Of a stretch of 35,692 bases of DNA, positions 1 to 29,376 are shown piece after piece. The notes beneath the pieces were generated by a model. That model searched no databases. It was not told the DNA's origin and saw nothing but the letters and a program-made list of their open reading frames with translations. Numbering within the stretch: the stretch's first letter is position 1; each line of letters starts with the position of its first letter. The position numbers were made by a program, and so were the translations under genes. The DNA is from Nemertoderma westbladi (Eukaryota > Animalia > Xenacoelomorpha): NCBI GenBank assembly GCA_032718475.1, contig JAUCBJ010000811.1, forward strand, positions 1 through 35,692, in the 5' to 3' direction.

Positions 1-42
1 AGGTGCGTTGTCCACCCCCCAGGACGAACTAGGAGAACATAG

Positions 43-3000
43 CATAAGGTCAGTGAAAATGGTACTACTACTACTCAAGCAGACCTTTATAATTGGGACG
101 AGGATGAGAGCATCCAACATCTTAAGATACCTCGATTCCAGACTGATTATCCTGGAGTGCAAATACTCATCGGCCAAAACGCGCATGAGGCGCTCGAGAC
201 ATTGGAGAAACGGCCTGCTCAACCGCAGCCACTACAAACCTATGCGGTAAGAACTAGAGTAGGTTGGTACTTTACTGGCCCTTCCCGTAGAACTCTCATG
301 GAAAGATTACCGAAAGATCAGGTATATCAAGTGCGAGAATGGGAAGTTGAGAACAGTGAGTTCGACGATCCAGCTGAGGGAACTCCATACTCCTCAGACA
401 ACGATGATATACATCAACTCTTCGATGAGGAGAATGCCATCGATCTCCTTAAGGAAAGCGAGACTTGGCAAAATCAAGTGAACTTATGTCAACTCCTTCT
501 CCCATCCGAGCGAGACGACTATAACGACGAGCTTAATGACGTCATTGAACGTTATAATGCCAAGACTCGGGATGAACACGCCGTGAGATTCTTTACTCAA
601 GAGGTCGTAGAGCCCAACTCCTACGATAAGGCCCTATCGGTGGAGGAAGAAAGAGCCAAGCAGATCCAAGCGACAACTACTCGTTTTCTTAAAGATCAAG
701 GTAGGTATGAGATCGGACTTCCTTTCCGAAAGCGAGAACCAAAGTTCATTAACAACAGACCTTTGGCGGAGAAAAGAATTGCTCAACTACATCGACGCCT
801 TACGGCAAATTCTTCAGCTAAAGAAATGTATCAAACACAGTTGAAGAAGTTTATTAGCAAGGGATATGCGGAGCTAGTACCGGAAGAAACACCCATAACT
901 GAGAGAACGTATTATTTAACTCACCATTACGTTCCCAAACCCGGTAAACCCCATGAAGTACGAGTGGTGTTTGACGGTTCCGCCCTTTATATGGGCCAAT
1001 CTCTTAATTCTGAATTGTTACCCGGACCCAACTTACTTCAATCCTTGTTGGGAATACTATTAAGATTAAGACAATACTCCATTGCTTTCGCCTCAGATAT
1101 AGAAGGCATGTTCTTACAAGTCAAAGCGCTGGATAGGGATCGAGATAGCCTACGATTTTTGTGGTGGCCTGAAGGAGACCTCAACAAGAAACCGGTGGAG
1201 TACTGGATGACCATCCAAGCTTTCGGGATAATCTCGAGCCCTTCAAACGCCTGTTCCGTGGTGCGCACTACTGCGGATGACAACCGAGACGCCTTCTCTA
1301 AAGAGGTGATCGACAATATCAAACGAGACATCTACATGGACGATAATCTGAAGTCCCTTCCATCAGTCGAAGAAGCCATTGAGGTCGCTAAAGGAACGGT
1401 AGAATGTTTAAAGAAAGGTGGATTTCGATTAACTAAATTCACTAGCAACTCCCGTGAGTTTCTGGAGTCGATCCCGGTAGAAGATCGAGGAACAAAAGAC
1501 CTAGATCTAATAAAGGATGATCTCCCAGAAACTAAGACCCTTGGTTTGAAATGGGACACAGAAAGAGATATCCTGTTTTTCCAATTAAAACAGCGAGATA
1601 ATCCAGTTCGGACTAAACGGATATGTTTAAGTATCCTGAGCACTTATTTCGATCCATTGGGATTTATTAGCCCAGTTATATTAATTGCTCGGAGTTTAGT
1701 ACAACAAATGTGGCTTGAAAACCACTCATGGGACGATCCACTTAAGGGAGAATTATTAAAGAAGTGGATGAAATGGGAAGATTCTCTACCAGCAATCGAA
1801 AACTTTATAATTTCCCGTTCATATTTTGGTCATGTTCTCCCTACGTATTCATATCAACTCCATGTGTTTGGAGACGGCAGCGATATGGGAATCGGTATAG
1901 TAGCCTACCTAAGGGTGGAAACTCCGGACGGAATTAAAGTCGCCTTGGTTACCTCTAAGGCATTAATAAACAACAAGTTGAAAGTTCCTCGAGCGGAGTT
2001 AAAAGCGGCTCTATACGCTACAGCCATCGGCCGGAATGTAACAGAACAGATCGACTATCCCCTGGAGAAAACTGTCTATTGGACCGATGCTTTACTCATG
2101 TTGGAGTATATAACCAATGAAGTCTGTCAGTTCAGCGTCTTCGTTACCAACAGAGTAGCTATTATACTCAGTCGCACGACGATGGATCAATGGAGACATT
2201 GCCCCGGAACGATTAATCCAGCGGACATCGCTTCCAGGGGAGCAACTCCACAAGAACTGGTAGATACTCCAGACTGGTTAGGTGGACCCGACTTCCTCTA
2301 CAAAAAAGAAGAAGAATGGCCTCCTCATCTTACTACAGCAGAAATTAGACAGGCCAAGGGAGCGGAGAAAGTCAAGCCTAAAACTCAGGCGAGTAAATCG
2401 AAGTTATTCAAACCCACAGTAGATCTGTCTGTACTACATACTTCCGGAGACGACGCTTTGGATCAGAAACCCACAGCCACAAATAAACCCATTGTGGAAA
2501 TCCGTGATAAGGATTGGAAATCTGGTATACCAGACGTCTCGCAAGGACTCTCACCTCTTCTGCAGAGAGCGATGCATCACTACAGTTCCTGGAATCGGCT
2601 TTGTAAGGCCATTACATATTTAAAGAGATGTTTTCACCATCACTACTCTGGGATGAAAACAAAGGGTGATACCGCTCCAATAACATCAGTGCAGGTCCAT
2701 GTTATTAAAGATCTTCCCAAATATAAGGTACCCGACAAGTTTCTGAAGGAGAAGATCAGTTATCAGGAGCATGAAGAAACCAACAAACAGATGCTGAGAC
2801 TCTTACAATGCTATGAAGATTCCGATAAGTATTTCCTGTTGTTGAGAAATCCACAGATGCGCTTAAGGGATCGTTTCTCTAGCACAATGATAGATGGGTT
2901 GATACGTGTTGGAGGAAGGTTAACGAATGCCCCATTATCCTTTGATACTAAGTTCCCCATACTCATTAGAAATCTTGAAATACAAGTCAAGATGATTGTA

Positions 3001-4218
3001 GATGTTCACAGCAAACTTTATCATGCTGGTAGAGAACGAGTTCTTAGCGAAATTCGAACTCGCTATTATTTTTATAAACCCCGTAGAGCTCTGAACCAAG
3101 TTCTTAGGAACTGTATACCCTGTAAGAGAGCATTCAGTAGGCCTTTAACACAGAGAGAGGCAGAATTACCTAGGGAACGAGTAAGCTTTTATGAACCACC
3201 CTTTACTAATACCGGTGTGGATTTATTTGGCCCTATTGAAGTATATCGTGCTAGGACTATAGTCAAGAGATGGTGTGTAATCTTTGTTTGTATGACTTGT
3301 AGAGCCATCCATCTCGATATGGTGAACGATTTATCTACCAACAGCTTTCTATTAAGCTTACGACGACAGATCGCTCGCTTTGGCACTAGTAACACGATGA
3401 GATCTGATAAGGGAACAAACTTCATTGGTGCCAACAATGAAATTAAAGCTTACGTCAAAGATTGGAACCAAAGACAGGTGGACGACCAACTGCGAGTAAC
3501 AGCGTCTAGTTGGACTTTCAACGCCGCCGACGCCCCTTGGTGGGGAGGAAGTTGGGAGAGATTAATAAGAAGTGTGAAGACGGCATTTCATTTTATAGTG
3601 CCTTGCCGCGCTTATCTCACCGACGAACTTTTGCGGACGTTAATGGAAGAAATCGCCGCCTATCTCAACGAGAGACCGCTTATGCCAGTCTCATCGAGTC
3701 CCGATTCCCTGGAAGCGCTAACACCCGCGCACTTCCTACTGAAGAAACCTGTAGCCATGCTCCCACAATCGGAAATCACAGACGGAGACGAATACTGCCG
3801 ACAAACTTGGCAACTCATGCAGTTGTTATCCCGTCGTTTCGCTGACCATTTCGAAAAACATTATCTGCCCACGCTACAACTTCGAACTAAGTGGTTTGCG
3901 CAGCAAGAAAACGTCAGCGCTGGAGACATGGTGCTTATTGTGGATGTGGATCTTCCACGTAAGCGGTGGCAGACAGGTCGTATAATCGAAACGCACATCT
4001 CGGATGCCGGTTTGGTGCGATTGGTAGAACTCGTCGTCATGCGACGTAACTTCAAGAAACCGGGAATTGTCTTCGAGACGCAGCAGCTCAATCGCCCGGT
4101 GGGACGTTTATGTTTACTGGAAAGAGACAGAGAACTCTCCGGAAACTATGGGAGACAAGATACTCTTCCCACGACCACCTCCCTAATCCAACAAACATCT
4201 AGGGACTCCCCAACTTAA
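43..4218 (+). CDS. pol: BEL/Pao Pol polyprotein (C-terminal protease region, reverse transcriptase, RNase H/A17 domain, integrase); 5'-partial
   Basis: Frame open from 43 (TAG at 40-42). Motifs: ILIG..., TRVGWYFTGP, RVVFDGS, SLNSELLPGPNL, DIEGMFLQV, YMDD, LGLKWD, FDPLG, LHVFGDGS, PRAEL, WTD, NPADIASRG, integrase HHCC (H...HAG...CIPC), GVDLFGP, SDKGTNF, GGSWERL. The PR-RT-RH-IN order and these motifs are typical of BEL/Pao. Confidence 0.96.
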   Translation, partial: HKVSENGTTTTQADLYNWDEDESIQHLKIPRFQTDYPGVQILIGQNAHEALETLEKRPAQPQPLQTYAVRTRVGWYFTGPSRRTLMERLPKDQVYQVREWEVENSEFDDPAEGTPYSSDNDDIHQLFDEENAIDLLKESETWQNQVNLCQLLLPSERDDYNDELNDVIERYNAKTRDEHAVRFFTQEVVEPNSYDKALSVEEERAKQIQATTTRFLKDQGRYEIGLPFRKREPKFINNRPLAEKRIAQLHRRLTANSSAKEMYQTQLKKFISKGYAELVPEETPITERTYYLTHHYVPKPGKPHEVRVVFDGSALYMGQSLNSELLPGPNLLQSLLGILLRLRQYSIAFASDIEGMFLQVKALDRDRDSLRFLWWPEGDLNKKPVEYWMTIQAFGIISSPSNACSVVRTTADDNRDAFSKEVIDNIKRDIYMDDNLKSLPSVEEAIEVAKGTVECLKKGGFRLTKFTSNSREFLESIPVEDRGTKDLDLIKDDLPETKTLGLKWDTERDILFFQLKQRDNPVRTKRICLSILSTYFDPLGFISPVILIARSLVQQMWLENHSWDDPLKGELLKKWMKWEDSLPAIENFIISRSYFGHVLPTYSYQLHVFGDGSDMGIGIVAYLRVETPDGIKVALVTSKALINNKLKVPRAELKAALYATAIGRNVTEQIDYPLEKTVYWTDALLMLEYITNEVCQFSVFVTNRVAIILSRTTMDQWRHCPGTINPADIASRGATPQELVDTPDWLGGPDFLYKKEEEWPPHLTTAEIRQAKGAEKVKPKTQASKSKLFKPTVDLSVLHTSGDDALDQKPTATNKPIVEIRDKDWKSGIPDVSQGLSPLLQRAMHHYSSWNRLCKAITYLKRCFHHHYSGMKTKGDTAPITSVQVHVIKDLPKYKVPDKFLKEKISYQEHEETNKQMLRLLQCYEDSDKYFLLLRNPQMRLRDRFSSTMIDGLIRVGGRLTNAPLSFDTKFPILIRNLEIQVKMIVDVHSKLYHAGRERVLSEIRTRYYFYKPRRALNQVLRNCIPCKRAFSRPLTQREAELPRERVSFYEPPFTNTGVDLFGPIEVYRARTIVKRWCVIFVCMTCRAIHLDMVNDLSTNSFLLSLRRQIARFGTSNTMRSDKGTNFIGANNEIKAYVKDWNQRQVDDQLRVTASSWTFNAADAPWWGGSWERLIRSVKTAFHFIVPCRAYLTDELLRTLMEEIAAYLNERPLMPVSSSPDSLEALTPAHFLLKKPVAMLPQSEITDGDEYCRQTWQLMQLLSRRFADHFEKHYLPTLQLRTKWFAQQENVSAGDMVLIVDVDLPRKRWQTGRIIETHISDAGLVRLVELVVMRRNFKKPGIVFETQQLNRPVGRLCLLERDRELSGNYGRQDTLPTTTSLIQQTSRDSPT

Positions 4219-4744
4219 CAACGGCTGGAGTGGGTGTGTGACCATATTACTTTATATTTGTATTTGTTTTATTTTTATATTTATGTATGTATTATTATGT
4301 AATTTTATTTTAATCGTTTTATTTAATTTTATTTGGTAGTATGGTATTTTAGAGATTATTTAGTAGATTAGTGCAATATATATTCGCGTTTATTATTTAA
4401 TTACGTATATTATATATTTAGTGCGACGGCGAGAAATAATTCTTTTTCTCTTTCCTTACTGCCCGTATTACATTATCAATACGTGACTACAGTAAGATGA
4501 AATCTTCGTACTTATTAAAGTACAATAAAGCCACTACTATATTCAAGTATTATTGGTAGGCAGAGTATTAGGAATGCAAAGTTCAGATCCTCGTGTCTCG
4601 GCTAAACCAAGCTCTGGGTAGACCTTGGAAACGACTTGCCTCTTCACACTGACATTGCTTCGTGCGATATTGCTCTCATACCGTATATTAAATAATACAT
4701 ATAGTAGCGTGATGTCCCTTTAACAGTAGCGTATAACGCAAAAT

Positions 4745-5075
4745 AAATCTGTTAAACCCTTTGACCATCTGTAATTCTAGTCGATTAAGATATCGCGGCA
4801 CCCACCGATATACTTGAAAGACAAATTTCTAGAATCAATGGTTAACGTCCCCAGACAAGTTCTGGAATAAACTGGTGCCCATCCTAAATATTAATTATTA
4901 ATATTTACAAAATCTGTCAAATATCAGATCCTTTAAAATTATAGTCGATTAAGATATCGTAGCAATTGACGATACTCTTAAAAGGACAAAATTCCTAGAA
5001 TCAAGGATCCCAGTCCCCAGACACGTTCTGGAATAAAATTGTGTCTATTTAACATTAAATAATAAAATTTATGGG
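4745..5075 (+). repeat. Diverged ~165-bp tandem duplication in the pol-ORF2 spacer
   Basis: Units start at AAATCTGT 4745 and 4910; shared blocks TAGTCGATTAAGATATCG, GACAAA, CTAGAATCAA, GTCCCCAGACA.GTTCTGGAATAAA. Confidence 0.8.
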
Positions 5076-5859
5076 AATAAATTTAAATTCATATATTTCA
5101 ATGAATTTAATAAATTGTCATTTTGTACAATTTATAACATTCCCAAAATTCCATTAATTAATAGATCATGGGAGCGGAGATTCATTTTATTAAGTGTATT
5201 TGTGTGCGAGAATCTCCAATGTATAGTCAATAGCCGATAAAATTCATAGAATCATGTATAAAGGGGATATTGACCATTAAAGAATTACTATTAAATAGCA
5301 TCCCAGATCTGTATGCATGAGAATTACCCTAATTCTACCGCTAGCTTTCCATAATGTCACCATGGCAACAACCACGCTAGAATTAGAAGTGAGTTAAAAG
5401 AACAATAGAAGGCATGCCCCATTGAATAGCATAGGGAATAAATAGCGCACTGCTAGTATCCAAGGATACATAATAAATACAGTGACATTCTGGAAGGTAC
5501 TGACTAACGGACAAATGGCCCGAATGTGTGCAGTTTGTTGCAGTTGTGTTGAATTTGTGTGTTTGTAGGTGAATGTTACTACTAAGGTGTGTTTACAGTA
5601 GCGAGTCGCAATTGTGAAAGTAACCCTAACTCTCCAAGAAGAACCTGCAGTACATCTAAGCCTTTGGGACGGACAGTGAAGTGACTTGTGCCGGTTATCG
5701 TTGTCGTTGTGTAGCTACATCGTTGGCGAAAGCACAGCGACGACGGTACATCGGCGCTGAGGATCTTACACTGTCCGGGGGCAAAAGAGGGGTAGGCAGC
5801 GACACCCGCTAGCCTAATATATATAGACTCATTATAATATTGATAAACTCATAGCAGAT

Positions 5860-8800
5860 ATGACTGAGTTGATAGAAGATGATCTTGGCATCCGGGAGCG
5901 ATATACTCTACCTTTACAAGCGTTTGTCGATAGCTTGATACGCGGCGATGCTGGTCCAACTACTACGGAAAATGATGGTCGTTATATCGAACCGCCAATG
6001 TCCCCGGAGCAACTTACGCGTGAATTGGACTATAGAAAGTTCACCGCTCGTTATACGCATCGTAATGGTACGTATATGGACTTCCTAACTACTGGCCATC
6101 CTATCGATTTACACGACACGGACGATGTGGATACCGAAAGGGAAATGGTTTTATTTAAATATCATACCCAACGGAATCGGAACGATAAGCCAAGAATAGA
6201 ACACGAGAACTCTATTCGAAACAGACTCGAAAGAGAAGACATTGAAGAGCCGGATAAACGCAACGACTTCAACGATTATCTGGAATTCTTGAGAGAAACA
6301 TACCTCAATATTGCCAGTCAACAAAATCTCGAAACTCGATATCCTCAAGGTATACATCATGATCCTATGATAGAACTCAAACGACTCTATTTCACTATGA
6401 TGTATCTTACCGCCGATCGACCGCTACCTGTTGTCCCAGATAGCTTCGAACAGATGGAGGAATATTGTAAAACTGGAGAACGATCACCCGCGTTTCCTCT
6501 GCAGGACATGCGTCTTTGGTATTACTGTGACGAATGCCCTAGACCCAATCAGCAAACGGAAAGACATAAACATCCGCGGAGACGTTGCGCTAAACACAGT
6601 TTTACACGATATACTTACGGGAGTTTCGAGCGAAACCTGTTCGACGTGTCCCCTGCGGTCGCTCGACTCAAGCGATCCTTGAACAAACCGATGATCAGAG
6701 TTCCGGAATACTCGGTCAGACCTCCGCATTCCTCAGTTAGACCTCAAACTCTTGACCCTAATAGTATCACGGATCCTCCCGAACTGTACTCACTGTTCAA
6801 AGATCTAGTGTTACCCGAACAGTTGATCGGTGGCACTCCGGTAGTAGGCTCACGAGACATTCGCCAACCCTACCTAGCTGGATTGGGACGTGGACATCTA
6901 ATATCGCCGTTTAACCCATACAACCGTCCCGGCTTCACCTCTATCCAACCCGTTACGGAAGTCGAAGAGAGCGTCGTACGAAACGCATTAGACGCTATTC
7001 GGCAGAAAATCGGAAAGGGAACGTACGATTGTTTGGAGAAGCGTAAATTGCAGCAACAAGTCCAAGCGGTGAAGGAATTAGCTTTACCCCAGTTCGATAG
7101 AGAAATACAAAATCTCGAGGAGGACATCGAACGGGGACGAACCTACTCTTTACAAGAGTTTCTAGATGAGCGTCTACAACAACAAGCGGAGGAGAATCAG
7201 CTCGAGGAGAGACATATAGAACTGGATGAGAGAGAAGAAGCGGCTTTAGCTCAACCCGAAGCGCAAATCCTTATGACGGATCTCTACTCTAAAACAATTC
7301 TTCATCCCTCGATGGTTCCCCATTTCAGAGACAAACTTTTTGCGACGGCACAACCCCAACCGGTTGATATCAACCTAAGATCTCGAGATCTTATCGCCGA
7401 CGCTCCTCTGTTGCAGCGTCCGCCCATCGAATCCGCTCGTGTCGATGGTATACTCGTTGAACCTCCGGACAATAGAGCAGATCTTGTCCGTCGCATGGTA
7501 CACGATGTAAACATACGCGCTAGACCTTTACCGGACTCGTTTTATGGGATCAAAGATCACCCTTATTACGTCAATCTAAAACAATATTACATGGTAAAAC
7601 CGGAAGATCCTACACATAGTCTGAAGTTTCTACCGTTAATAAATCCTCTCGATCTTGTCGAACTCGAACAACTGCAGAAACATCTGGATCAGTTAGTTAA
7701 AGTAAACTCGTTTCGAAAACCATATAATGTTTCCAGAATAGAGAAAGAAACAATACCTCCGTATAATCTTGATGGATTCATCAAAACTCGTTTAGTGCAC
7801 TGGAATCTTGATGTGTTATTCGAGGAGGAAAGAATACAACGATATGGAGATGTGGAAACATATACCACACAATATTTAAAGTATAAAGACCTGCCTAATG
7901 CTAGCGAATGTGCTACCTTGTGGCATCCTGTGGGAATGACACTAGAAAACGCCACAAAAGAGTGGAACGAAACTCTTAACGTTATCGAGATGTATGGAGT
8001 TGTCACTTACGATAACGAAGGTAGCGTTCCGGTTGGAGAACTTGGAACTACGCGGATGATACACATATGAGGACTCGCTGGTTCTACCCACGTATTTACT
8101 CGAGCGTGTTCCGACGTTATTGATTATTCTTTTGAAACTCTTACTGAGACACAAAAGATACTCCGACATGGACAATTTGAACTCGCGCAGCGTTACGTCA
8201 CCGACACCGAGCGCAAGCCGGCCATGGGTATCGATGGATCGATGTTACCCCAACCCGTGCTCGAGATGCTGTTTAACGAAGGAATCCTTAAAATCGGCTC
8301 AGCTGTTTATGGAGACCTACAGAACGACTTTCGGAATATGGAGAACATTCCATACCCCTTCGTTGATACTCAGCTGATTGCTCCTTGGGCAGAAGGCCGA
8401 GGTTTCTTCCGCACTACGTATGCCAATACACCCAGCGGAATTACCAAAGTACAACGAACCTCCATCGGACATCTTGCCTTTCAAGAATACGGATGGAATT
8501 TCAAGGTTGGAAATCCTATAAATTACCAACAAGTATACGGAGATCATTATTCTCGTTTATACTTTGATGGACCGTTGACCGCACCTGGCGCCGTGTATAG
8601 CTTTATGAGTGTTCCACTTCGTCCCTCCTTAGCTATATACACGATCTTTGAAAACGCAGCACTTGCCGGTTGGCTAGCCGATGTGTGCAGTCGTACCATA
8701 CGCGCCCATCCCTTAATACTTGGAACCAAACTCGCCAAGTTAGATGAACACAATAAATTCATCCGCTTTGAATGTTTCAGGCGCTTTCTGACTCCGTTCC

Positions 8801-10113
8801 GTAACGTTGATAGTCAGTTCAAGGACCGCGCTCTGACCAAACTCAGCCTGAGAGACTCAGCGGCGGAGAAGCTAAACAGCGCGGGATTTGCCCTTTTTCA
8901 GGACGTTTGTATACAGAACTTGCACTCATCTGTTATACAAAGACCCCGAATACCCACGGGTTATTCTGTCGTCGAAGTTCAGACAGTGGGTCAGCTTGCG
9001 GAGACAGCCGCACCTACCTCAGCTATGCAATTGGAAGACGAACCAATATGCTTAGAAGCTGAAGCGATTCAGCCTACAGCGCCCCGGAGCAGCGATAACG
9101 ACTACGTCTTAGAGTGGTATCAAGGTCCACAATGTCTCACCGCATACGATTATCGACACGCTAACTATGTTTCTCGAAAACGTTGTCGATTATGCGCATC
9201 GAGAGACCATTTCACTCCTATGGACTCAGACGTACCCTGTTCCTATTTCCACGAACAACCAATGATGGAGATATATTGTGCGTATTGCAGACTTAATAAC
9301 TCTCATATTTTTGCAGTCTGCCCCCAATTTATGACTCAATGCCACCACTGTCAACTTAAAGGACATGCCAGTTATAATTGCCCCTTTAATCACGATTTAG
9401 AGAGCGTAGATGAAATGATTACCCTGCGCTACATCCGAGCTTGGGAAGCTAACGCGGATTTACACTGTGAGTCCCATCATCGATACTACCCTGGACGCTC
9501 TTACGAGGGAGTTTACGCGTTCCATCCTTATTTATTAGCGTCTGTGGAACAAAAAACACGCATACCGAGTTACGAGCTAATGAAGCGTGTTGGTGAGTGT
9601 ATTTCCACTAAATTTGTTAAAAGATACCTTAGGAACGTCAATCCTAACGATATTACTTCATACCATTTGATCAATTATATCCGTCAAGACCCTGAGTATG
9701 GCGATTTATTTATCAACTCGCACCCTGAGTTACAGGAAGTATCTCGACGGCCCTACGAATATCGAGCCCGAGAACGCGAGCTGGAAAGAACTATTAAACC
9801 AAGGAAGTTTCTCACCACTCACGGTCCGCCTACCGCCATTGCCCAGACAACCCGTCAAGGACCCGTAGGAGCTGCTGTCCTGAGGCGCACCCTAAAGGCT
9901 GTTAGACCTCGCTCCACGGAAGTTGATATCGATCAACCAGGTACCTCGACCGGCGGATACACCGATCGCAATCCGAAGCCTTCTGATGCAATTGTGTTGC
10001 ACCCTTCACCCAGGAGTTACAGCCCTCCTAGTAAAGTGGCTCGCCCCAAAGAGAAAAGGACTCTTGCTAGCCTCAAAAAACTGCGTAAACGCCGTCCGCG
10101 TAAGAAAGACTAA
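5860..10113 (+). CDS. ORF2 of element A (~1417 codons, one in-frame TGA at 8068-8070): Cys/His motif, coiled coil, DEDDy-type 3'-5' exonuclease-like domain, CCHC zinc knuckles, basic C-terminus
   Basis: ORFs 5860-8070 and 8224-10113 are in the same frame and 8071-8223 is stop-free (GLAGSTHVFTRAC...KPA). Exonuclease-like motifs: VVTYDNEG (ExoI), LPQPVLEMLFNEGILKIGSAVYGDL (ExoII), FVDTQLIA, SIGHLA, PLRPSLAIYTIFENA (ExoIII-like). Knuckles at 9184-9381; KKLRKRRPRKK at the end. Confidence 0.75.
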
Positions 10114-10182
10114 CTGTTTAGAGTATTTTTATATTTTAGAAACTGTGATTTGTTATATTTTATAGACTTAAATCCCATTTTC

Positions 10183-10191
10183 TGGGAGCGG
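10183..10191 (+). promoter_or_regulatory. Putative polypurine tract of element A
   Basis: TGGGAGCGG immediately precedes the LTR start TGT; the same GGAGCGG precedes the 3' LTR start of element C (20883-20890, minus strand). Confidence 0.65.
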
Positions 10192-11193
10192 TGTAAAAGC
10201 TTTTGCGTAATTAACCGGTTATTTTCCCTTAAAGTACTCTGTAGTTGGTTTGCCAGGCATAAAAGGCCGTGTCCTTACTGTACTGGTGTTTTAGAGGACA
10301 TAAAAGCCATTTCTTCTGTATTTGTACTTTAGAGGACATAATCCGCAATTTCGGGACGCAATAAGCTCGATACTCTTGAAAACAGTGTCGCTACCATGAC
10401 GACGGCTAACAGCTGATATTGCCACGTCGACATTTCTTTGTTTCTTTGTTCTCTAGTTATTCGGTCGACCAATCAGAGCGTTTTTTGTCTCTGTGTTGGA
10501 GTTGGATACAGAAACTCAGTAGTTCAGTGTTATGTTTTTGCCCAGAGCCTAAGAACACCGGCTTTTGGCACCTCCGTATATCAGCATTCTTTAGCTTTAC
10601 ATTAGTAGGCTTAATTATAGAACGTATATCTGTTATCAAACGAGTTATATATCCTAACCTAACCATACCAATGCAAATCGAGTTAACATACCATATCTAT
10701 CTATAAATTACTAATATTACTGCTTTTACTGTCGGTTATTCATTATATTGGTTGATGAAATATTATATCGGAATACTGATCAATAGTCAGACACCCCACC
10801 TTCTTGATATACTAAAGGTTAGAGAGACCGGTTACAGATAAACGATTGCGACCTATGTTAAGTGGTTTGAAGTGAATCTAATGCTATTTCATATGCCCGA
10901 CATAAATTGTATGTTGCTCTCTTTATACGTGACCAAATTTAGTGAAGGTCGGCAGATTAGTGTGCAGTATTGTGCAGCATTGTGTATGATTGTAACTGAT
11001 AACAAAGCATCTCCTAAAGAATGTGCCATATACGTGAATCTATAGCCTTTTCGTTGTGTCTAGTTTAAGTCATAACTCTGTTTACATATTTAGAGCTCCA
11101 CGTCCTAAAGGAACTGTTAATATTTCCCGAAAGTGAATAATATTAGTCAGAGATTATATATTACTATCAGTCGAATAATACGGTAGGCTTACA
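10192..11193 (+). repeat. 3' LTR of element A (~1.0 kb)
   Basis: Starts TGTAAAAGCTTTTGCG after the PPT, ends GCTTACA; homologous over its length to the inverted LTR at 11275-12229; CCAAT motif near 10469. Confidence 0.75.
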
Positions 11194-11274
11194 CCATCAA
11201 TCATTAAGCTCCGAATTCAGTCTCCCGGGTATATCCACCGGGTGAATGATTGCGCATAGACTGGCTTCGGCTAA

Positions 11275-12229
11275 TGTAGTGTATCAAATACTCGTCATAA
11301 GCTAAAGAATATATATCATCCAAAAGACATCCTAATTTGGCAGGTTAAACTGTCAAAGGTCTTAAAAGCGCAAACACTTATACTAAACACAACTAAATGG
11401 CTACTGAGTTTCGTAAATAGCGCATTCTTTAGGAGATGCTTTATTATCTGTCACACTACTTCACACGACTTCACACTACTTCACACTGATCTGCCGACCG
11501 TCACTGAATTTGATCATATATAAGGAGGATCGCAACTGACACATGTAGGGATTATGAAATAGCATTTAATTCACACAAAAACCACTATAATGTAAGTCGC
11601 AATTGCTACAGGTAACCTTCAGTTACCTTCAGTAATCAAGAAGATTGGGGGTTTTATGATTATTTATCGGTATTCTCCAAATATAACAACATATCCATCA
11701 ATATATAACAATTAATAACAGACAGTAAAATAATGCAGTGAACAATCAGTATATGTTACTTATGCAAGTCAGTTCAGCAGTTTGAGTTGATATGTGGATT
11801 GAGTTGTCGAGATAATAGATTTACGTTCTTGTAATCAAAGCTATCTAATGTTTGGCCAAAGTCTGAAACTTCTACAGAAGCACAGAAGAATTCTAAGCCG
11901 GTGTTCTGAGGCTCAAAAAAGGTAAACAAAGACTGTAATGCATTGCGCAGTTTTATATAGGCCCTTGTCCAGCATAAAATGAAAATCGCTCTGATTGGCT
12001 GAGCAGAACAAGGAGGTTCCACGTTTACAGAAAATCAGCTGACAGATTTCGTCATCTGAGCTCCAGTCTTTTAGAGTATTAGGCGCATTGCGGCAAAAAA
12101 TGACTTGTTATGTCCGCTAAAGCACCTACACGGTACATTGCGGAGAAAAATGACTTGTTATGTCCGCTTAGCACCTACACGGTATATTGCGGAGAAAAAT
12201 GACTTATTATGTCCGCAAAAGCTTTTACA
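11275..12229 (-). mobile_element. LTR of a related, diverged BEL/Pao family (element B), probably its 5' LTR
   Basis: Reverse complement starts with the identical 16-mer TGTAAAAGCTTTTGCG; shares CAGCTGAT, CCAATCAGAGCG, GAGCCT.AGAACACCGGCTT and AAAGCATCTCCTAAAGAATG with LTR A; CCAAT + TATATAAAA on the minus strand. Left boundary is approximate. Confidence 0.75.
12086..12216. repeat. ~50-bp tandem repeat (about 2.5 copies) inside LTR B
   Basis: CATTGCGGAGAAAAATGACTTGTTATGTCCGCT(A)AGCACCTACACGGTA repeated. Confidence 0.85.
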
Positions 12230-13583
12230 TCCACCAAGCGAACAAAGCAGCATTGGATTTAGCTACTACGTCCGGGAAGAAAGTTATACCTGTCAAAGAT
12301 ATCGCAGCTTCTGAAATGCGACGATTTTTGGGAATTACATTTTTGATGGGTGTAATAAGAAAATGTACTTTACATGATTACTGGTCCACTGGGGAGAGTA
12401 TCGCTACTCCGCATTTCGGGAAACTAATGTCACGAAATTGATATTGAAATCCTTCGTTATCTAAGATTTTCGGACTTAGATAAATTGGACCCGGATATCA
12501 GAATGACACGTCTGCAGGATTTCATTGACGAATTGCATCTAATTGTAAAAGTTTATACTGCTGGGGAGGAACTTTCGCTTGATGAATCATTACTGTTGCA
12601 TAAGGGGCTGTTACTATTCAAACAGTACATAAAGACAAAAGCAGCGCGATTTGGAATAAAACTATTTATTCTCACTGATCACCTTGGATATATGTTATCT
12701 ACTATTATATACTTTGGAGCACAATCTAAAATAAATAGCGGTGAGGATGGTGCTTCTCACCTTAGCAAATCTGAGCAGGTTGTTGTTTCGTTGTTGAAGG
12801 AAGCTATGGCTACCTAGATAAAGGATACACGGTATCAATTGATAACTGGTACAATTCTGTTCAGCTTGCCATGTACCTCTACGGACGGAATACTGGAATT
12901 AGAGGAACTATACGCTGTGACCGTGGTATTCCGCTGGATCTAAAGAATAATGAGTTGACTCCAATAAACTCGGTATTTTCCCGTAATAATGATGGTAATG
13001 GTCCGGTACTTGCCATAAAATTCTGTGACAAAAGAGTCGTTTACTTTATTACAACCTCCGATAAAGCCGACCTTGTAGATAAGACCCGCTACCTACCCGC
13101 AAGACAAACTCAAGACTTTAAGAAACCGCAACCTATTGATAAATACAACTATAACATGGGTGGAATAGATTCTTCGGATTCAATGATTTCTTCGTGTACA
13201 TATGTCCGCAAATGTCAGAAATGGTTTGTCAAACTAGGAATCCATTATATTCAGCACCTTGTATTGAATAGTTATATCCGCTACCGGGCTGAAAAAAACC
13301 GAAACATCTAACATTCAGTATGTACCTCTTGGATGCTATCGATTACCTAACACAAGTACCAACACGAGCCGTCCCACACAAGCGTCAATCTTTGCCAGCT
13401 GTGCCAACCACTCACAAGTTGGTCAAACTGGAACCATCTGGAAAGGTACTGTCCCCGCATAAGCGTTGCCGTGTGTGTTGGAAAAATCGTACTTACAAAA
13501 GATCGCGCTATATTTGCCCAGCTTGTCCTGATAAGCCTGGACTTTGTCCAACCTGCTTTGGAGAATATTCTCACTCAAATTGA
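12230..13583 (+). pseudogene. piggyBac transposase, 5'-truncated, with frameshifts and stops
   Basis: Fragments: EMRRFLGITFLMG, DYWST, LMSRN; LSLDES (first D); KAARFGIKLF; DNWYNS at 12841 (second D); GTIR; YNYNMGGIDSSD (third D); C-terminal Cys-rich domain CRVC...CPACPDKPGLC..CF. Split over four ORF pieces. Confidence 0.92.
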
Positions 13584-15415: not shown

Positions 15416-16296
15416 GGCCTACCGAATTAGGTAAAGGATGGATTCCCTGAGGGAGAACGAGTTTACAGCGGTTTTGATACAGTTTGGGGTAGGGCGGGTT
15501 GAGTTGACCTCAGGTCACCCAACCCACCTATCTAGAGACGAAACAACCTAACTAGATACGAACTCCGCGCCCTGAACTGAAGTAAAAGAGTAAGAGTTTA
15601 ATTTTAGTACAACTGTAACTAATTCTGGTTTATTTTATTTAAACTTTATTTTGTACAGTTGTTGTGATGGTTTAATTTCGATGTAAAATGTAGCATGTAG
15701 TAAACTACTGTAATATAAATACATATATATTGCATAATTACTGTATAATATTGTAATTTGTCATATTAATTTGGTGCGGGATTAGCAAGTAACTGTGTTC
15801 AATTAGCTCTTGTTGGAGGCCTTCTGACTCCTGTCACTGTCGGTTTTGTGGCGCGCCTGCCACAGATATTCTACACTCTACATTCTCACTTCTACATTAT
15901 ACCGGACATTCTACCATCTGCGTCTCGCTTTTCACTTGCAGTCCTTACAGTCCCAATCCCAATAAACATTAACTTGGTCGTTTTGGCGGCCAAAATGACC
16001 AAAATCACCAAAAAAATGTAGTGTATTCCTATGGGCTACTTGGTCGTTTTGGCGAAGCGATTTAACTCGAATCAGCTCAATCCAGACAGTCTGTCTCCTT
16101 GGCCATCCATTTGGTGGATCTGACTAAATGTCGGCTCGCTTTCATTTTTATTATTGACAGATTGTTAACTTACCCGGCGCTGAGCCTTGCAGTACTGGAG
16201 TCCGCCCACTGAGGCATTGATAGAGTATACACTATACAGTCTTTTAAAAGGAGTTGAATGGGGCTTCGTTAAAGGAGGAGTATGTATAATAATATG

Positions 16297-16467
16297 AACG
16301 TCCCGAAATTAATTTATGGACGTCCCGAAATTAACTTATGGACGTCCCGAAATTAATTTATGGACGTCCCAAAATTAATCTACCAACCAATCAGAATCGT
16401 AATGAAATAACTAATTAATGGACGTCCATAAATTAATTTCGGGATGTTAATTTCGGAAATTAATTTC
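16297..16467. repeat. 22-bp tandem/inverted repeat cluster (also 27812-28050)
   Basis: GGACGTCCCGAAATTAA(T/C)TTAT direct copies followed by an inverted copy; copy number differs between the two host elements. Confidence 0.85.
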
Positions 16468-16538
16468 AATAATATTTTTTTTTATAATAAAAATTTTTTT
16501 TAGTATTTTTTTACAATGTATAATTCGCGGACACTGCG

Positions 16539-16939
16539 GGGTGACTACAAAACAAAGACCCAATTATAAAGACCTGCATAATCTTGTTACATGTGTTAAC
16601 TTTCGTTAATTGTTTTGAATCCCCCGTCACACCTCTGTAACTTGCTCCTTTACTAACCTGCTCCTTTAAATAGCAATGGTACATAACGCTCATTGTGACC
16701 TGTACAAAACAAAGAGGTAAAGTCGCGTTACGTCCCAAAGAGCGTTAGGTTCCAAAGAGCTTTAGGTCCCATTGCCAGAGAGTGTTAGGTCACATTGCCA
16801 TTTAAAGGAGCAGGTTAGTAAAGAAGCAGGTTACAGAGGCGTGTTGGGGAACAAAAACAATAAACGAAAGTTAACACGTGTTTTGTATTTGTACAGGTCT
16901 TTATTATTTGGGTCGTTGGTCTTTGTTTTGTAGTCACCC
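16539..16939. mobile_element. Mutator-like MITE nested in the Tc1-type element
   Basis: ~140-bp imperfect TIRs GGGTGACTACAAAACAAAGACC...; perfect 9-bp TSD GACACTGCG (16530-16538, 16940-16948). Confidence 0.85.
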
Positions 16940-17924
16940 GACACTGCGGTGTTGCGTGGGGGCCACCAATCCACCCACCCACACTCAACTCCCAACTTCC
17001 TGGACACTAGGATACTGAGTGAAAGCGTCTGAAACTACTACAGGAACACATGACAGACTATGGGCTAGCGACTAGGGACTGGCGCCCTTGAACATGTAAA
17101 CTGTAGTACCTACTGTACCACCTACCTTAAAGTGACCTGTGGGAATACTGTAGCCCATTATTAGTGAGGTCGGCATTTCTCTTTATCCTGCCGCTCTCTT
17201 TGTATTACAATAGCATACAGCTAACCAATGGCAATGGTCTACCCCCAGTGCGGTTTTCTATCTGCCAACATCCTGGGCTTTACTTACACTCAGCATCTAT
17301 TCACTGGCTGTGATTGACAAGCCAACTTGCCTCAGAAGTTCCTTTCATGAATGCCGCAATTTATATTTGGCCATTTTGGTTGTTTTGGCCGCCAAAATGA
17401 CCAAGTTAATGTTTATTGGGATTGGGACTGTACAAGATTCGTCACTTAATTTCTCTTAATTAATTCTTACAGTAATCATTTTGCGATCTTTCTTCGACTT
17501 ATTGGTTTTATTTATTTTATACTACCCGTTGGGTAAATAAAGATAACAATTTCATAGGAGAGTCAGTCGAATATGTGTAGCGGTGAATACATGTTTCACA
17601 TTAACAATGATAACGGCGACAATAATAATCAACATTGACGTTAAAAGCAATGACTCGAATTAATACCACACTGATATGATTCATATGTAGTGTTAAAATC
17701 ATTTACCAATGTCAAAATCAGTTACCAGCAGCTCTTGACATAAATTGACATGACATTTTTTATAAAGTGATTGACAGATTGATGTTAAATAATTTCAAAA
17801 TTATCAATATAACAATATATTATTATGATTTTAGTATTGGTGACAAACCAGTCTGACTTCGAAACTCTCTTGTTCAATGTATAATCGTATGGGGTTATTT
17901 GATTGGCATCACAATCCCTCGGGG

Positions 17925-18137
17925 TTACGGGGTTTAATAGACTCAGCATTCGATTGCTCTCGTAATTCCGGGTTTAATAGACTCCGTCGCCATCGTTCCG
18001 GGTATAATCGACTCAGTCGCCATTGTTCCGAGTTTAATAGACTCCGTCGCCATCATTCCGGGTTTAATAGACACCGTTGCCATCGTTCCGGCTTCCGGGT
18101 TTAATAGACTCCGTCGCCATCGTTCCTTCTTTTAATA
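17925..18137 (-). repeat. Same 30-bp minisatellite in the right TIR (inverted)
   Basis: GGGTTTAATAGACTCCGTCGCCATCGTTCC, about 6-7 copies. Confidence 0.9.
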
Positions 18138-18379
18138 ATCACCTTCTACCGGTATCTGATAGTCCAGAATAAATCCTTAACCTGTACCCCCTACGCCCTA
18201 CCCCATGGGACGTTATCTCTCTCTCTGTCAGCGCAACAGCTCCTGTAGGCTGATAGTAGGGCTGTTGTACTGTGGTGGGCCTGTACATCAGTACATATGT
18301 AGCACCACATCTGCAATGCAAAAGACCAATACTGCAGTACACTGATTTCATCCAAGCCGCCATTGGTCAAGAGCTAACA

Positions 18380-20150
18380 TGTTAAAGAAATCTCAAAGGG
18401 GATTCTTCCTTTTGATATGTTCGTATTTTCAAATGAAACAAAGGGTTTAATCAAACTATAACATACCAAGCTAATTGCCCTAAACACAAGCCGAAACAGA
18501 AACAACCAAAACAATAAATCTGATTAGGCTTCCCAAGCTACTTAATACGAGTAACGAGTGTTGGTGACTTAACACTCCAATTGTTCACCCTTCACAGAGA
18601 AATAAAGCAGTTCATCAGGCGGACAAATGTTGAATGTGAGAATATTTAAGAATGCAAAAGGGGGGAAATTATTTACCTAAACCCTGGTGCCCTTAGCGCT
18701 GACTGTAATCAGCTATATTACTGCTCGCTACGCTTGCGACTACTGTAGACTTGCAAACCCGCTATTTTTTAGATAACCACCTAGCTGCCTAGTGTAAATT
18801 TGTCCAAAGATATTTCTGTATTTCCTAAGTATAAATAACTAAAACTATTCTCCGCTATGCAGCGTACGAAGTCCTTATTTTATTCTAAATACTACCATAC
18901 ATAAACTACATTTACTCAAATGTGCGGGGTTTCGAACTAATTTATTAGGTATTCCAGAATTTGTAAGGCTAATTAGTTACGTTACTGGGCTACACTAAAG
19001 ACAGCCTAAATACCGTATTATTTGAGCTAACAGCAATTAACAAGCGTAAATAGAAAACAGAAACAATCAAGATATATAGCGCCTATCTAAAACATTACAC
19101 ATAAATAGCCTACCTACAATTAGGCCCTATAATCGCAGTAATAGCGTTAGCATTAGCATTAGCGTAGCATTAGCATAAACGTTGCATTAGCATAAACGGC
19201 TAAGGTCACCCCAGATCAATGTGATCTTTCTACCTAAACCTAGCTAGCCTAATAGCAAATCTGAGAGACAAGATCTAGGTTGCCTTGCCCCTTACAGCCT
19301 TAATGGCGACCGGCCCTCGGTCCTAAACGTAATTCAGCCAACCGCAGCCACCAGCCCCGCCGGTAGTGCCGTGCATTGGATCCTCCAACTTTTCTCGCCG
19401 CTTCCAAACAGTGAGCCCGCAGCGCCTACCCCTAGCCCAACATGTTAAAGAGGGCAGTTATCGTAACGGCGCAATCATAGTAAAACCCAATCAGACAGTC
19501 GAAGGAAAAAAACAGACAAAAGTTGATTTTGGTTCACTACATTGCGGCAATTATATTTGCAATCAGAAATATAAAATCAACAGTCAGAATAAGCAGTAAT
19601 CATATTCAAAAGTCACAAATGTATGAAGAATGCAGCAAAATTTACAACCAACGGAAGTGCAAAAAACGAAGAATAAAGATGGCTACTGCTAAAATAATCA
19701 GGCGACATCCAGGGTTGTCTCAGCTGGATTTTCGACCAACCAGTGGGCAGAACTCAATTTAGGATCATTAAAGCACGTAATCGCCTCAACTTAATTTGGC
19801 GATTAATAAAAGCACAATTTAGGCGTTATTTTAGCACAAACATCGATTTATAGGGATATGTAAATAAAATTAGCACAAATGTATTAGATTCGATAGATAT
19901 TGGAAAACGGCAAAATTCATATTTTGTTTTAAAGAATTTTGCCACCGCAAATGAATATATCAGGGTTTTATTATAAAATGACGTAAATAGGGCTACATAC
20001 TGTATAAAATCGACTGAATATAAAATGAACTCATGTATTTTTTATTTACCCTATCTAATTATTACGGTTGCACATCAATACGCACTTATCTAACTTATTT
20101 TATACTGTATAAGGTGGGTTGTTCTGTACACAACGCCATATATCGCAACA
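18380..20150 (-). repeat. 3' LTR of element C
   Basis: TGTTAAAGAAATCTC...ATATCGCAACA; near-identical to 30149-31931; contains a TTAGCA hexamer run at ~19140-19195. Confidence 0.9.
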
Positions 20151-20871
20151 TAACACCTAACAACCAACCAGCAGACAGTATTTGGTATTAAATTACGTTT
20201 AAGGTCGAAAATGGGGCGAAATTATCGGATTTTATTAATTAAAAAATGTAAAGTATGCCTTCTAATAATACCTATCGTACTGGAAAGCGAGATTTTGCAG
20301 ATTCTTTGATAAATTCGATATTTTCGTTGATCATTACGTTGTTTTCGTTATTTTGGGGTTTTATAACCATCCTTCTAGGAGGGAGGAAAACGTGGTTGAC
20401 ATTTGACATTTGTGGTTGACATTCCTTTTCGATTATTAAAACTTCCACTTAATCATGGGAAAACAATTGTATGTAAAATTCAAGTAACACGATTTATGTT
20501 TACTTATTATTATTATTTCCACCAATTCCATGAATTTACTACTATAGTCCTGCACCACAATGTAGAACATTCGTGTATGAATATATGCGAAATAGTAATT
20601 CATAAAAATTATACCTATATAAATACTAAATATATATTTTTTTAAAAGTATCGCATGGCTGCGCACCGACTTATGAGATATTTATTATGTCCCATGTAGA
20701 TAATGAATAGTTAATAAATTTAATAAAATAGCCTCGCGCAGAATATTAATATTGGAATTTTCGAAACCCATATTATGCTGTATCAGCTCTCTCAGGCCTA
20801 CATACGCCAGGATGGTAGACAAGGTTCCTGTAATAATATACATACTCACTTAAAACTTAAAAATGATGCAT
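20151..20871 (+). repeat. Duplicated copy of the outer flank 31932-32662
   Basis: TAACACCTAACAACC...AAAATGATGCAT occurs at both places. Confidence 0.92.
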
Positions 20872-23224
20872 ATATCGCAACACCGCTCCAAGAGAAACAT
20901 GTAATGTTTCTCTCCAATTGTAGAAGAAATATGGCGGTGTGGAATAACAAATAAAATTTACTTTCAAATAAATCAATAAACTTGGTTCTATTATAATTCT
21001 AATACATACAAAATATTGCTACCTTTACTGCATAAATATTATGCTTACATACAAAATACAAATTAAATTAAAAAATATACTTCCTTCGAATTATTTACAA
21101 ATTAACAATTTACTTATTGAAATGGAACATGGCTAGGACTATGTCCCCCATTTCCCATCTCAAATTATAGAGAACAATAATAACAAAAGAACTAAAATAT
21201 AAAACGTATTTGAGGCTAAATGTTTAACTAAATATTATTGCGTTATAAGGCTGACAATCAAATTAAATATAAAATACGTAATAATTTCTTTCATTTTCGG
21301 ACTTTACTTAATTTCTTATAAAAACGCAAATCATCTTGGTTTGATGATTGCTCAGGTAAGTGAAAGGAGTAAGCCAAACCCGCGGGTTTGTCTCCCCAAT
21401 CACTTCCTTTGCCTCTTTCAATAAACTTTAGAGCAAATAAAGTCATATACACAAAATCAAATATAGTATAAAGTATTTACTATTTCCAACGGACTATAAA
21501 GTAAAAGTATTTCCTTTCAATATTTTTCGGCCTTCTTTTTTATATAAAAAAAATTCTGTCTAAACTAAATCAAATGAAAAATAAGTATAACATATATTAA
21601 AATCCACTTGTGAGGGTGGGCAATAAATCTAGACGTATATATCAGAGCGACGATGATATATAAAGGATTGGACATATTCGGGCTTAATAATACGTGCGTC
21701 GAAACTTCCCGAAATAATTTGGAGTAAAATATCGTATAAATCGCGGATCATTGGGTATGGTTAGTAGATGGATGGATGGCGCGAGTCTATTGGATGTCGG
21801 AACAGCTTGCGTTGTCTTTTCGCGTCGTATCTTTATCTCATCGGCACTCACATCGACATCTCCACTAAGGCAGGAGTAGTATGAATTCCAATCTCACTAT
21901 ATAAGGATCCGGAATCGTAGTCGTCAGTGTAACAGATGTTGGGGGTTTCTTTCCGCTAAAATCAACGGTTATCTCGGGTTACTCATCGGATCGCTTTCGT
22001 CCTTCTGGGCTCCTCCAAACACCAACGGATGGCGCTTCAAAATTCTCGCGACTATGTCTGTTATCAAGCAAGTTACCGTGTTTGATTCCAACAATAGATA
22101 ATACTGCAACGAAGCACGAGGTGGTGCGCAAATGTTCCAATATACCAACGCTTATCACTTGAAATGGGATTTGAACTCAGCTCCCAGTGGCGTGTTATAT
22201 TCACCGTACGCCTCCTCATACTTCTTCTGCGTCTTCAACTTAAAACCCAATTATACAATAAATGAGCTATAAAGCCCATACCAGTCTTGGCTCGACATCC
22301 CGAGCTACCTGGCCTGCCTTCCAGCAGTTCAGGTTCGGCTCTCTAGATCCCGCCTCAATCCTAAGTTAACGTCTATATCTATTCCCATGCATAGCGCAAA
22401 AACTTTGGAGATAAACTGGCCGTGACCGACTCACTTTTTTGATGCCCAAATTACTCCCCAAATACTTGTACTAGAATACAGTAGTTAGAACAGACATTAT
22501 TTGGGGCGCTCGACTATACCAAACCCACGGGTTTGATTATCAAACACCTCTCTCCACTACAAACTACTGAGTGGGGTCTGTGTACGTCGCTGGTGCTACT
22601 AACCTTTAGCACCTTTGGTTGTTGTACTGTTGGCACCAATCTGTGGAATCTACTGAACTCAATTTACACTCCTAAATATAATAGCCATAACCATGGTGTT
22701 TAGATACTATGTCTTCCATCTTGTCACGACTTTCAAAATTACTATACTCTTATAAACATGTTCACATGTTTATTCTACGTTTGAATTTGTCTTGGGTTCA
22801 ACTGTAATTATAATTTTTTTTAACTTTCAAACTTTCAAATGCAAAAAAAATTTTGATACCCACCAACATATTTTCAAACGCAATTCTCCACAAACCCGCT
22901 CCTATGCATTTCCAAGTATTTGCATATGAGGAATGCATATGAAGTGAATCTGCGTTTCTGACATTAATTTTGTTTTGAGGCAAAAGACAAGTTATAGTCT
23001 CCTGTCTCAATGCGTGTTTGTGACAATTGCGATCCCACTGACGGAATCTTCGAATCCAAATCCGCACATTTGTAAACTGAAGGCTCCACTGGTGTGGTCG
23101 TTTCTTGTCGGTTACTTACTAACTAACTGGGACCCTTGAGCTCCTTGCGCAATCTGTAGGGGTGGCTTTATGTCATAGCTAACCCTTCCAGATCTTGTGG
23201 TCATGTATGTCTCTTGATCCAAGA

Positions 23225-23403
23225 AGTCTATAGGCCGTTCCACTGGGTCTCTAGGCTGCTCCACTGAGTCTCTAGGCCGCTTCAATGAGTCCTTAGGCCG
23301 CTACAATGAGTCTCTAGGCCTATCCACTGAGTCTCTAGGCCGCTCCAATGAGTCTCTAGGCCTATCCACTGAGTCTCTAGGCCGCTCCAATGAGTCTCTA
23401 GGC
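23225..23403. repeat. 21-bp tandem repeat at the end of gag
   Basis: CCACTGAGTCTCTAGGCCGCT-like units, about 8 copies (LETHWSG/LETQWIG). Confidence 0.9.
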
Positions 23404-29349: not shown

Positions 29350-29376
29350 GGGGGGGGGGGGGGGGGGGGGGGGGGG
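29350..29376 (+). repeat. Poly-G run (27 G)
   Basis: Direct reading. Confidence 0.9.

Follow-up and report, generated by a model that had tools for sequence, protein, structure and literature searches.

We report a BEL/Pao long terminal repeat (LTR) retrotransposon that carries, between pol and its predicted 3' LTR, at a site that in related elements is occupied by env or by no gene, a large additional open reading frame (ORF2, 1417 codons, 5860..10113) with a predicted RNase D-type 3'-5' exonuclease domain and a triple zinc knuckle. It lies in a stretch of 35,692 nucleotides from Nemertoderma westbladi (contig JAUCBJ010000811.1 of assembly GCA_032718475.1), referred to below as the window; the features of the element are all on the plus strand. 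Our tentative reading, to which we give somewhat less than an even chance, is that this is a multicopy BEL/Pao element whose accessory gene probably encodes an RNA-binding 3'-5' exonuclease, which would blunt small-RNA or antisense silencing.

The first point is the nature of ORF2 residues ~691-957 (7930..8730). We consider it highly probable, judging from homology, that they form an RNase D/WRN/EXD-type (DEDDy) 3'-5' exonuclease-like domain; the tests behind the assignment are weak but converging, and some of them were blind. Comparison of residues 561-1300 with 1.84 billion representatives returned only two proteins, P0003 (E = 1e-6) and P0004 (E = 4e-4). P0003 is unbroken (648 amino acids) and contains the zinc module as well as the nuclease-like domain, the latter 28% identical over 197 columns. 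In NCBIfam, two RNase D models were the only families matched by the window domain out of 18,950 (E = 0.019 and 0.049), and the curated-library matches to this domain are all below threshold. In the strongest of the tests, a blind family profile made of three sequences was run on the six frames of 301 bacterial genomes, with 19 matched at E <= 0.1; an RNase D-type gene on the matching strand was found at 11 of the 15 loci retrieved. In the reverse direction, a profile of 29 bacterial domains ranks ORF2 first among the 354 frames of the window (E = 0.003, the next being 0.76). An hhalign comparison with an independently made family alignment gave E = 3.1e-5 over 99 columns. Profile-profile comparison with rows from the joint alignment gave E = 1.4e-6 and a score of 45.9, while 60 shuffles scored 14.3+/-3.0 (maximum 23.6).

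Further hints concern mostly P0003. Pfam DNA_pol_A_exo1 matches it at E = 0.2, and its best 10 Atlas clusters, with a top score of 0.86, are all DNA_pol_A_exo1 clusters belonging to a single family or clan, which we treat as a lead only; the top cluster combines DNA_pol_A_exo1 with zf-CCHC and is commonest in Euglenozoa. An exonuclease family is among three weak PHROGs matches (E = 0.086; a hint only). Other searches added no relatives: a word-indexed protein search gave none among 6051 candidates for ORF2 residues 600-1250 and only P0003 itself among 7996 candidates for P0003, tblastn of P0003 on plasmids and phages gave only E >= 6, and a metagenome scan with the 3' half of the window was negative for 28 stretches and for 38 viral contigs. 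Taken together, these results support the proposal of the earlier note, made from the sequence alone, that ORF2 combines an RNase D-type DEDDy domain with zinc knuckles, through homology that is below threshold but converging (NCBIfam, the blind profile and hhalign).

Structure prediction was a different matter. The earlier note had looked to AlphaFold with Foldseek for a check of the fold; the single-sequence model of the nuclease domain reached a predicted local distance difference test (pLDDT) score of 31. When 28 bacterial RNase D-type rows were supplied, the alignment-guided model rose to 62.6 (70-90 in the core) and placed Y927 and E931 on one helix. Its fold matches are Nibbler, RNase D, WRN, Rrp6 and EXD1, with a lowest E of 5e-3 in Foldseek and, in VIA, a Z of up to 10.6 (root-mean-square deviation 3.8, 155 aligned). 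Considering that RNase D rows were the input, these matches are circular and were not counted in favour of the fold; the guided model shows that the sequence is compatible with it.

The predicted catalytic residues are D718 (8011) and E720 (8017) of ExoI, from the joint alignment with RNase D and P0003, D819 (8314) of ExoII, aligned with the RNase D residue and with P0003, and Y927 (8638) and E931 (8650) of ExoIII, shared with P0003. The positions quoted previously for D718, E720 and D819 were correct. All five occur in P0003 (D62, E64, D130, Y229 and E233) at an overall identity of ~28%, and their retention at such a distance favours real catalysis. With some reserve, we lean to the view that the putative two-metal site D718/E720/D819/E931, with Y927, is catalytic.

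The second recognised part of ORF2 is the zinc module (9157..9639): three CX2C..H..C-type knuckles and a conserved helical segment (E..A......R....G). By sequence, ORF2 is a member of a small unnamed family defined by this triple zinc-knuckle module, which has 13 invariant columns across 7 module copies and is the sole part common to all six family members. A profile made without the window finds the ORF2 module at E = 3.7e-10 among the 354 window frames; the second-best match (E = 0.84) is the knuckles of the BEL gag in the window. The ORF2 module is also found by the profile of L002-L004 alone (E = 3.9e-5) and by that of L003 and L004 alone (E = 0.0015); the L003 module, in turn, is detected at E = 6.5e-16 by a profile from which L003 was left out. 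The P0003 knuckles match retroviral (human immunodeficiency virus, HIV) nucleocapsid (NC) structures at E = 1e-4. Searching with the zinc-module alignment among proteins of 1135-3240 residues (word-indexed) gave 0 of 2598. Pfam, another check proposed earlier, sees the ORF2 knuckles, if only at E = 0.056, and does not see the nuclease domain. Among the relatives, the zinc-module ORFs of L003 (5423-8209) and L004 (615-3326) can be aligned over ~750 residues (E = 5e-58), and the N- and C-terminal regions that they have in common match no known family. P0004 (L001, 124-2022) has a degenerate nuclease-like N-terminus, and its zinc module is tandemly duplicated (585 nt).

ORF2 itself reads in frame +1 from the ATG at 5860 to 10113 with exactly one internal stop, the TGA at 8068-8070 (codon 737), which is situated between ExoI and ExoII, within the nuclease domain; the remaining five frames contain 57-97 stops each over the same interval. 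The earlier note described a same-strand frame of ~1417 codons between pol and the polypurine tract with the 3' LTR; there is indeed one long frame there, not open in this copy, and the title and reasoning of the note passed over the TGA. The opinion that the product is not env-like was also confirmed. No signal peptide or transmembrane helix was found in ORF2 (the highest 19-residue Kyte-Doolittle mean is 1.19, and that of the N-terminal 40 residues is 0.46); the membrane anchor and any fusogen family in Pfam, which would be expected of env, are absent. The N-terminal half (5860..7929) has no recognised domain: it matched no Pfam family and no N-terminal part of the L003 and L004 ORFs. Its residues ~390-470 are acidic, rich in glutamine and glutamate, and may be coiled-coil-like. 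The C-terminus is a basic tail, present in P0003 as well, which in ORF2 may resemble a nuclear localization signal.

The differences between copies show that ORF2 was under protein-coding constraint. Among those listed (40 of 2401 rows in one contig alignment and 40 of 320 in another, the latter on 4100-6000), 14 of 21 in ORF2 are synonymous, the expectation being 22-31% (p from 2e-5 to 8e-4), as are 10 of 11 in pol. None of the 12 indels listed (of 158) falls within the pol or ORF2 frames. The synonymous excess and the lack of a listed indel in the frames indicate that ORF2 had been a working gene in the lineage.

The stop codon admits another explanation, namely, a programmed two-product gene: the whole family would have a leaky stop at 8068-8070, so that an N-terminal protein of 736 residues would be made in abundance and the full-length nuclease only rarely. 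In its favour, the synonymous excess reaches significance before the stop (10 of the 13 listed differences) and not after it, and the stop is not among the 40 of 2401 difference rows listed, an absence that shows nothing in a partial listing. However, the stop falls within the fold, past ExoI, and not at a domain border, and P0003 has no stop at the corresponding place. We regard this explanation as very improbable.

It should be stated clearly what weighs against a functional nuclease. Concerning the fold, Pfam gave no family on 7840-8790 at E <= 10; the PDB sequence search with ORF2 or the three-sequence profile gave nothing relevant; four of the 15 bacterial loci retrieved are not RNase D, and the best-scoring one (L118) is among them; and the sequence signal of the fold comes mainly from the ExoII-DTQ segment. 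Concerning the active site, the ExoI block is not significant in pairwise comparison with P0003 (294 of 1000 shuffles score equally high), ExoIII would read Y-x3-E (Y927-x3-E931) and not the canonical Y-x3-D, one alignment puts D941 in place of the ExoIII acid, and P0004 lacks the ExoI Glu and the ExoII Asp. Concerning this copy, the position of the stop between ExoI and ExoII means that it would need readthrough of the TGA to make the nuclease, and past the stop only four of eight listed differences are synonymous (p 0.09-0.21, not significant). Two common deletion forms, 6228>9033 (in runs X4 and X5) and 7221>9970 (in X1 and X3), take out the nuclease domain. Finally, no nuclease domain was detected in the L003 or L004 ORFs. 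Considering that the nuclease is degenerate in P0004 and undetected in L003 and L004, it is the zinc module that stays constant, rather than the nuclease, and catalysis appears dispensable in the family.

These last observations fit well the proposal that ORF2 is an RNA-binding adaptor, in which the fold mainly binds (cf. Egalitarian and EXD1), the protein escorts the element RNA from the nucleus or to the germ line, and catalysis is incidental. The zinc module as the only part common to the six members, its duplication in P0004 alongside a degenerate active site, the non-canonical ExoIII residue and the env position of ORF2 all speak for an adaptor. It is opposed by the five predicted catalytic positions, which the window and P0003 have in common at ~28% identity. 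We consider the adaptor unlikely, though it deserves serious attention, and retain the exonuclease as the preferred reading.

As for the element, its pol is a 1391-codon open frame (43..4218) comprising, according to Pfam, the reverse transcriptase, the RNase H region, integrase and DUF5641. The matches are Peptidase_A17 (E = 2.8e-35), DUF5641 (2.3e-18) and Integrase_H2C2 (3.5e-7), so that the Pao-type reverse transcriptase/RNase H region, the integrase and DUF5641 are in the order of Belpaoviridae, with integrase last; the BEL/Pao identity proposed earlier is thus borne out. Pol is followed by a non-coding spacer of 1.6 kb (4219..5859), which likely holds an ORF2 promoter or splice acceptor, and by ORF2. 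Next come a polypurine-tract-like sequence (10178..10191) ending in GGGAGCGG and the predicted 3' LTR (10192..12229, 2038 bp, TG...CA). The gap between pol and ORF2 and the bounds of the LTR-like repeat refine the earlier description.

The 3' end was delimited by sequence, repeats and contig ends. GGGAGCGG stands directly before the TGT at 10192, and ACA is at 12229; 10192-12229 is bounded by a terminal inverted repeat, perfect over 16 bp; of the three long-range perfect repeats in 1-13000, no other is of this kind. The public contigs of the sequencing runs X1, X3, X4 and X5 were aligned to the window. On the left, an X4 contig switches strand exactly at 10192; on the right, an X1 record matches 12229-12371 without difference and then departs. 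The summed contig depth, which is not a copy number, falls from ~1e5-1e6 to below 100 beyond 12,587. The LTR identity of 10192-12229 is a prediction, since the 5' LTR partner lies outside the window. An independent DNA transposon with terminal inverted repeats was considered for the same interval and rejected: its immediate flanks are not duplicated, which argues against such a transposon, and the purine tract precedes it.

We hold it very probable that ORF2 belongs to this BEL/Pao element. The contigs aligned on 1-13000 number 81,120 in X1 and 23,294 in X3, cover all 30 bins and drop after ~12,200. On 4100-6000 there are 22,326 (X1) and 5,347 (X3), with a zero share running into unlike sequence in both; this share is 0.14 in X4 and 0.11 in X5. 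Diverged contigs bridge the pol-spacer junction (X3, 4156-4299; X5, 4140-4352) and the spacer-ORF2 junction (X4, 5583-5994). The diverged-copy contigs from four runs tile pol, the spacer and ORF2 without a boundary, and by this tiling the element is multicopy and moves as one unit with ORF2; the linkage is a chain of short contigs, none of which spans pol to ORF2. A second, independent line of support is L003, a contig of a metagenome collection found through the zinc module, which represents an unrelated BEL/Pao element. It carries a BEL/Pao pol (Peptidase_A17, E = 2e-44) that is 27.6% identical to the window pol over 1240 columns (E = 3e-105); 1.7 kb of spacer separates this pol from an ORF of 929 codons on the same strand, which has the zinc module of the ORF2 type. 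Linkage to pol was observed in two of the six family members, the window and L003; L001, L002 and L004 are too short or have no visible pol. That ORF2 is part of the BEL/Pao element, as suggested in the earlier note, is supported by the contig tiling and by the order in L003.

The contrary explanation is that ORF2 is not the cargo of this pol: BEL would end in an LTR from 4235, and ORF2 with 10192-12229 would be a separate element or a captured host gene. A purine tract and TGT right after the pol stop are the usual BEL 3' end and prompted a test of an element ending there. Also in its favour, no one contig covers pol through ORF2, and the 5' LTR is outside the window; indeed, the 5' LTR, the primer site and gag are all to the left, the window opening inside pol, which counts against our reading of the element. 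However, of the 24 loose ends listed of 563, mostly variants of the window's own sequence, none marks a boundary or a joint, or is an end of low agreement, at 4235 or close to 5770. Furthermore, diverged contigs span both junctions in several runs, L003 repeats the pol-spacer-ORF order, and ORF2 is intronless, the codon usage of its first half following pol (r 0.64) and not the gag of the second element in the window (0.04-0.07). The LTR start at 4235 was rejected on the loose ends and the bridged junctions, and we think the whole explanation quite improbable. The tract itself (4223-4240), immediately 3' of the pol stop, is retained in other copies; it is possibly a relic of an ancestral 3' end predating the gain of ORF2 or a second plus-strand priming site.

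The mechanism that we propose for the preferred reading is as follows. Pol, the spacer, ORF2, the purine tract and the LTR-like repeat lie in this order, and ORF2 would be expressed, in the manner of env, from a separate subgenomic RNA that begins, or has its splice site, within the 1.6-kb spacer. The basic C-terminal tail may carry the protein to the nucleus. The triple knuckle would bind single-stranded RNA and pass its 3' end to the two-metal site, which would trim RNA 3' ends. The least certain step is the substrate: host small or antisense RNAs would be trimmed or destroyed. That the enzyme acts on silencing RNAs, or on the precursors of these, we put forward as a tentative proposal, a shade weaker than or at best equal to the overall reading. 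It is favoured because host members of the fold act on PIWI-interacting RNAs (piRNAs) and small interfering RNAs (siRNAs), and because BEL/Pao replication otherwise needs no such gene; the relatives Nibbler/Mut-7 and EXD1 act in small-RNA pathways (PMC5408684). We admit that the evidence favours silencing RNAs no more than the element's own RNA. A broader version, which we find doubtful, would have a deep-branching BEL/Pao group with an undescribed family of large accessory proteins built on the triple zinc knuckle, in some lineages fused to an active RNase D-type nuclease degrading piRNAs, siRNAs or their precursors.

The own RNA of the element is the substrate in the rival explanation by which ORF2 aids replication: the exonuclease would trim the 3' end of the genomic RNA, the primer tRNA or the cDNA ends in the particle, with the knuckles as a second NC-like chaperone. 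The likeness of the knuckles to retroviral NC agrees with it, as do the processing of structured RNA and single-stranded DNA ends by RNase D/WRN-type enzymes, the unusually long and structured LTR, and the same role proposed for the rotifer retroelement DEDDy ORFs (PMC5408684 and PMC6431247). Against it, gag, pol and at most env suffice for most BEL/Pao elements (PMC8742986), and L003 retains the zinc module with no nuclease domain detected. We rate a replication aid as unlikely, about on a par with the broader version above, and keep to the silencing-directed exonuclease as a working proposal.

Some other observations on the window are given here for completeness. The spacer contains a direct repeat of 135 bp, 77% alike (4773-4907 and 4937-5071), one unit of which is absent from some copies (joints 4884-4888 to 5050-5060); self-BLAST gave no similarity of the spacer to 10192-12229. 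A deletion form of 2372-4089 occurs in contigs, and such forms recur across several runs; the X4 contig depth is concentrated on 5640-6500 and 9100-10400. The predicted LTR includes a pair of 350-bp inverted repeats, 73% alike (10724-11730), and, at its right end, 2.8 copies of a 49-bp tandem unit (12086-12222). To the right of the element is its insertion target, a decayed piggyBac-type transposase (12230..13311, plus strand; Pfam DDE_Tnp_1_7, E = 1.3e-21 on 12775-13308), the decayed region being noted over 12230-13500. Finally, a second BEL-type element occupies 15946-32662 on the minus strand, with direct repeats of ~5 kb (15946-20883 and 27467-32662, 92-99% alike in pieces). It has a stop-broken gag (23282-27129; DUF1759, E = 1.6e-10) and no pol, a 21-bp tandem array (23196-23427) followed by 2.4 kb of non-coding sequence, and, before its long direct repeat, a purine tract nearly identical to that of the first element. 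It resembles a non-autonomous BEL whose LTRs are very long.

For the question of whether suppressors of piRNA/siRNA silencing are encoded by animal transposons themselves, ORF2 is a concrete candidate that can be assayed: it shares its predicted fold with host enzymes trimming small RNAs, and an unbroken natural homolog, P0003, exists. If the broader version given above is true, this would be an enzymatic counter-silencing weapon of an animal LTR retrotransposon and would help to explain the large expansion of the element family. In BEL/Pao elements with pol only 28% identical, the place of env is taken by members of one modular family of soluble zinc-knuckle proteins, which has no annotation. 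Nuclease capture, known from the gypsy-like and Penelope-like elements of rotifers, would thereby gain a third superfamily of retroelements.

Among known systems, the members of Belpaoviridae have gag, pol and env-like genes, an LTR of 0.2-1.2 kb and a genome of 4.2-10 kb (PMC8742986). Env-like third genes are described for roo, Tas and mosquito elements with Chuviridae-like glycoproteins (PMC8742986 and PMC13524379). The window element agrees with the env-bearing ones in the set and order of pol domains and in having, between pol and the purine tract, a further gene on the same strand. It differs in that the ORF2 product is predicted to be soluble, without a signal peptide or membrane helix, and in that its LTR (2.0 kb) and length (>12 kb) are both above the ranges given by the International Committee on Taxonomy of Viruses. 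Only env-like extras are mentioned in the main texts of PMC3118150 and PMC13524379, where the word "exonuclease" does not occur, and no nuclease or zinc-module ORF is reported for BEL/Pao in the literature searched, which did not extend to subscription journals, Repbase or supplements; element lists of the Repbase kind may contain such ORFs without annotation.

With the host proteins Nibbler/Mut-7, EXD1, EXD2, Egalitarian and Rrp6, ORF2 shares the predicted fold and the motif order (ExoI hhD-E, ExoII D, DTQ, ExoIII helix). The combination of exonuclease and zinc knuckle is also found in eukaryotic host proteins (DNA_pol_A_exo1 with zf-CCHC); a trypanosome RNase D that bears a knuckle degrades guide RNAs. 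Compared with the host RNase D/WRN/EXD family, ORF2 is only ~12-22% identical, has insertions of 24 and 25-30 residues and the ExoIII Glu, and is intronless and element-borne.

The closest parallel, noticed from the beginning, is the DEDDy ORF3 of the Juno/Vesta LTR retrotransposons and Athena elements of bdelloid rotifers, as described in PMC5408684; the ORF3 of Athena/Terminon retroelements likewise appears in PMC6431247 and PMC6338049. Similarly to the rotifer ORF3 (PMC5408684 and PMC6431247), ORF2 is a non-envelope extra ORF that lies 3' of pol and has a predicted DEDDy domain of the RNase D kind. The rotifer catalytic motif is slightly altered (DEED), whereas that predicted for ORF2 is D-E-D-E(y); the rotifer elements, compared here by description only, are gypsy-like or Penelope-like, whereas that of the window is BEL/Pao. 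ORF2 also differs in its 1417-codon multidomain product, the triple zinc-knuckle module, the 1.6-kb spacer and the 2-kb LTR. As far as our searches reach, there is no precedent for a captured nuclease in BEL/Pao, for an architecture of 1400 residues or for the zinc-module family, of which a second, distant BEL element has a member; the capture of a nuclease by a retroelement, as such, has one.

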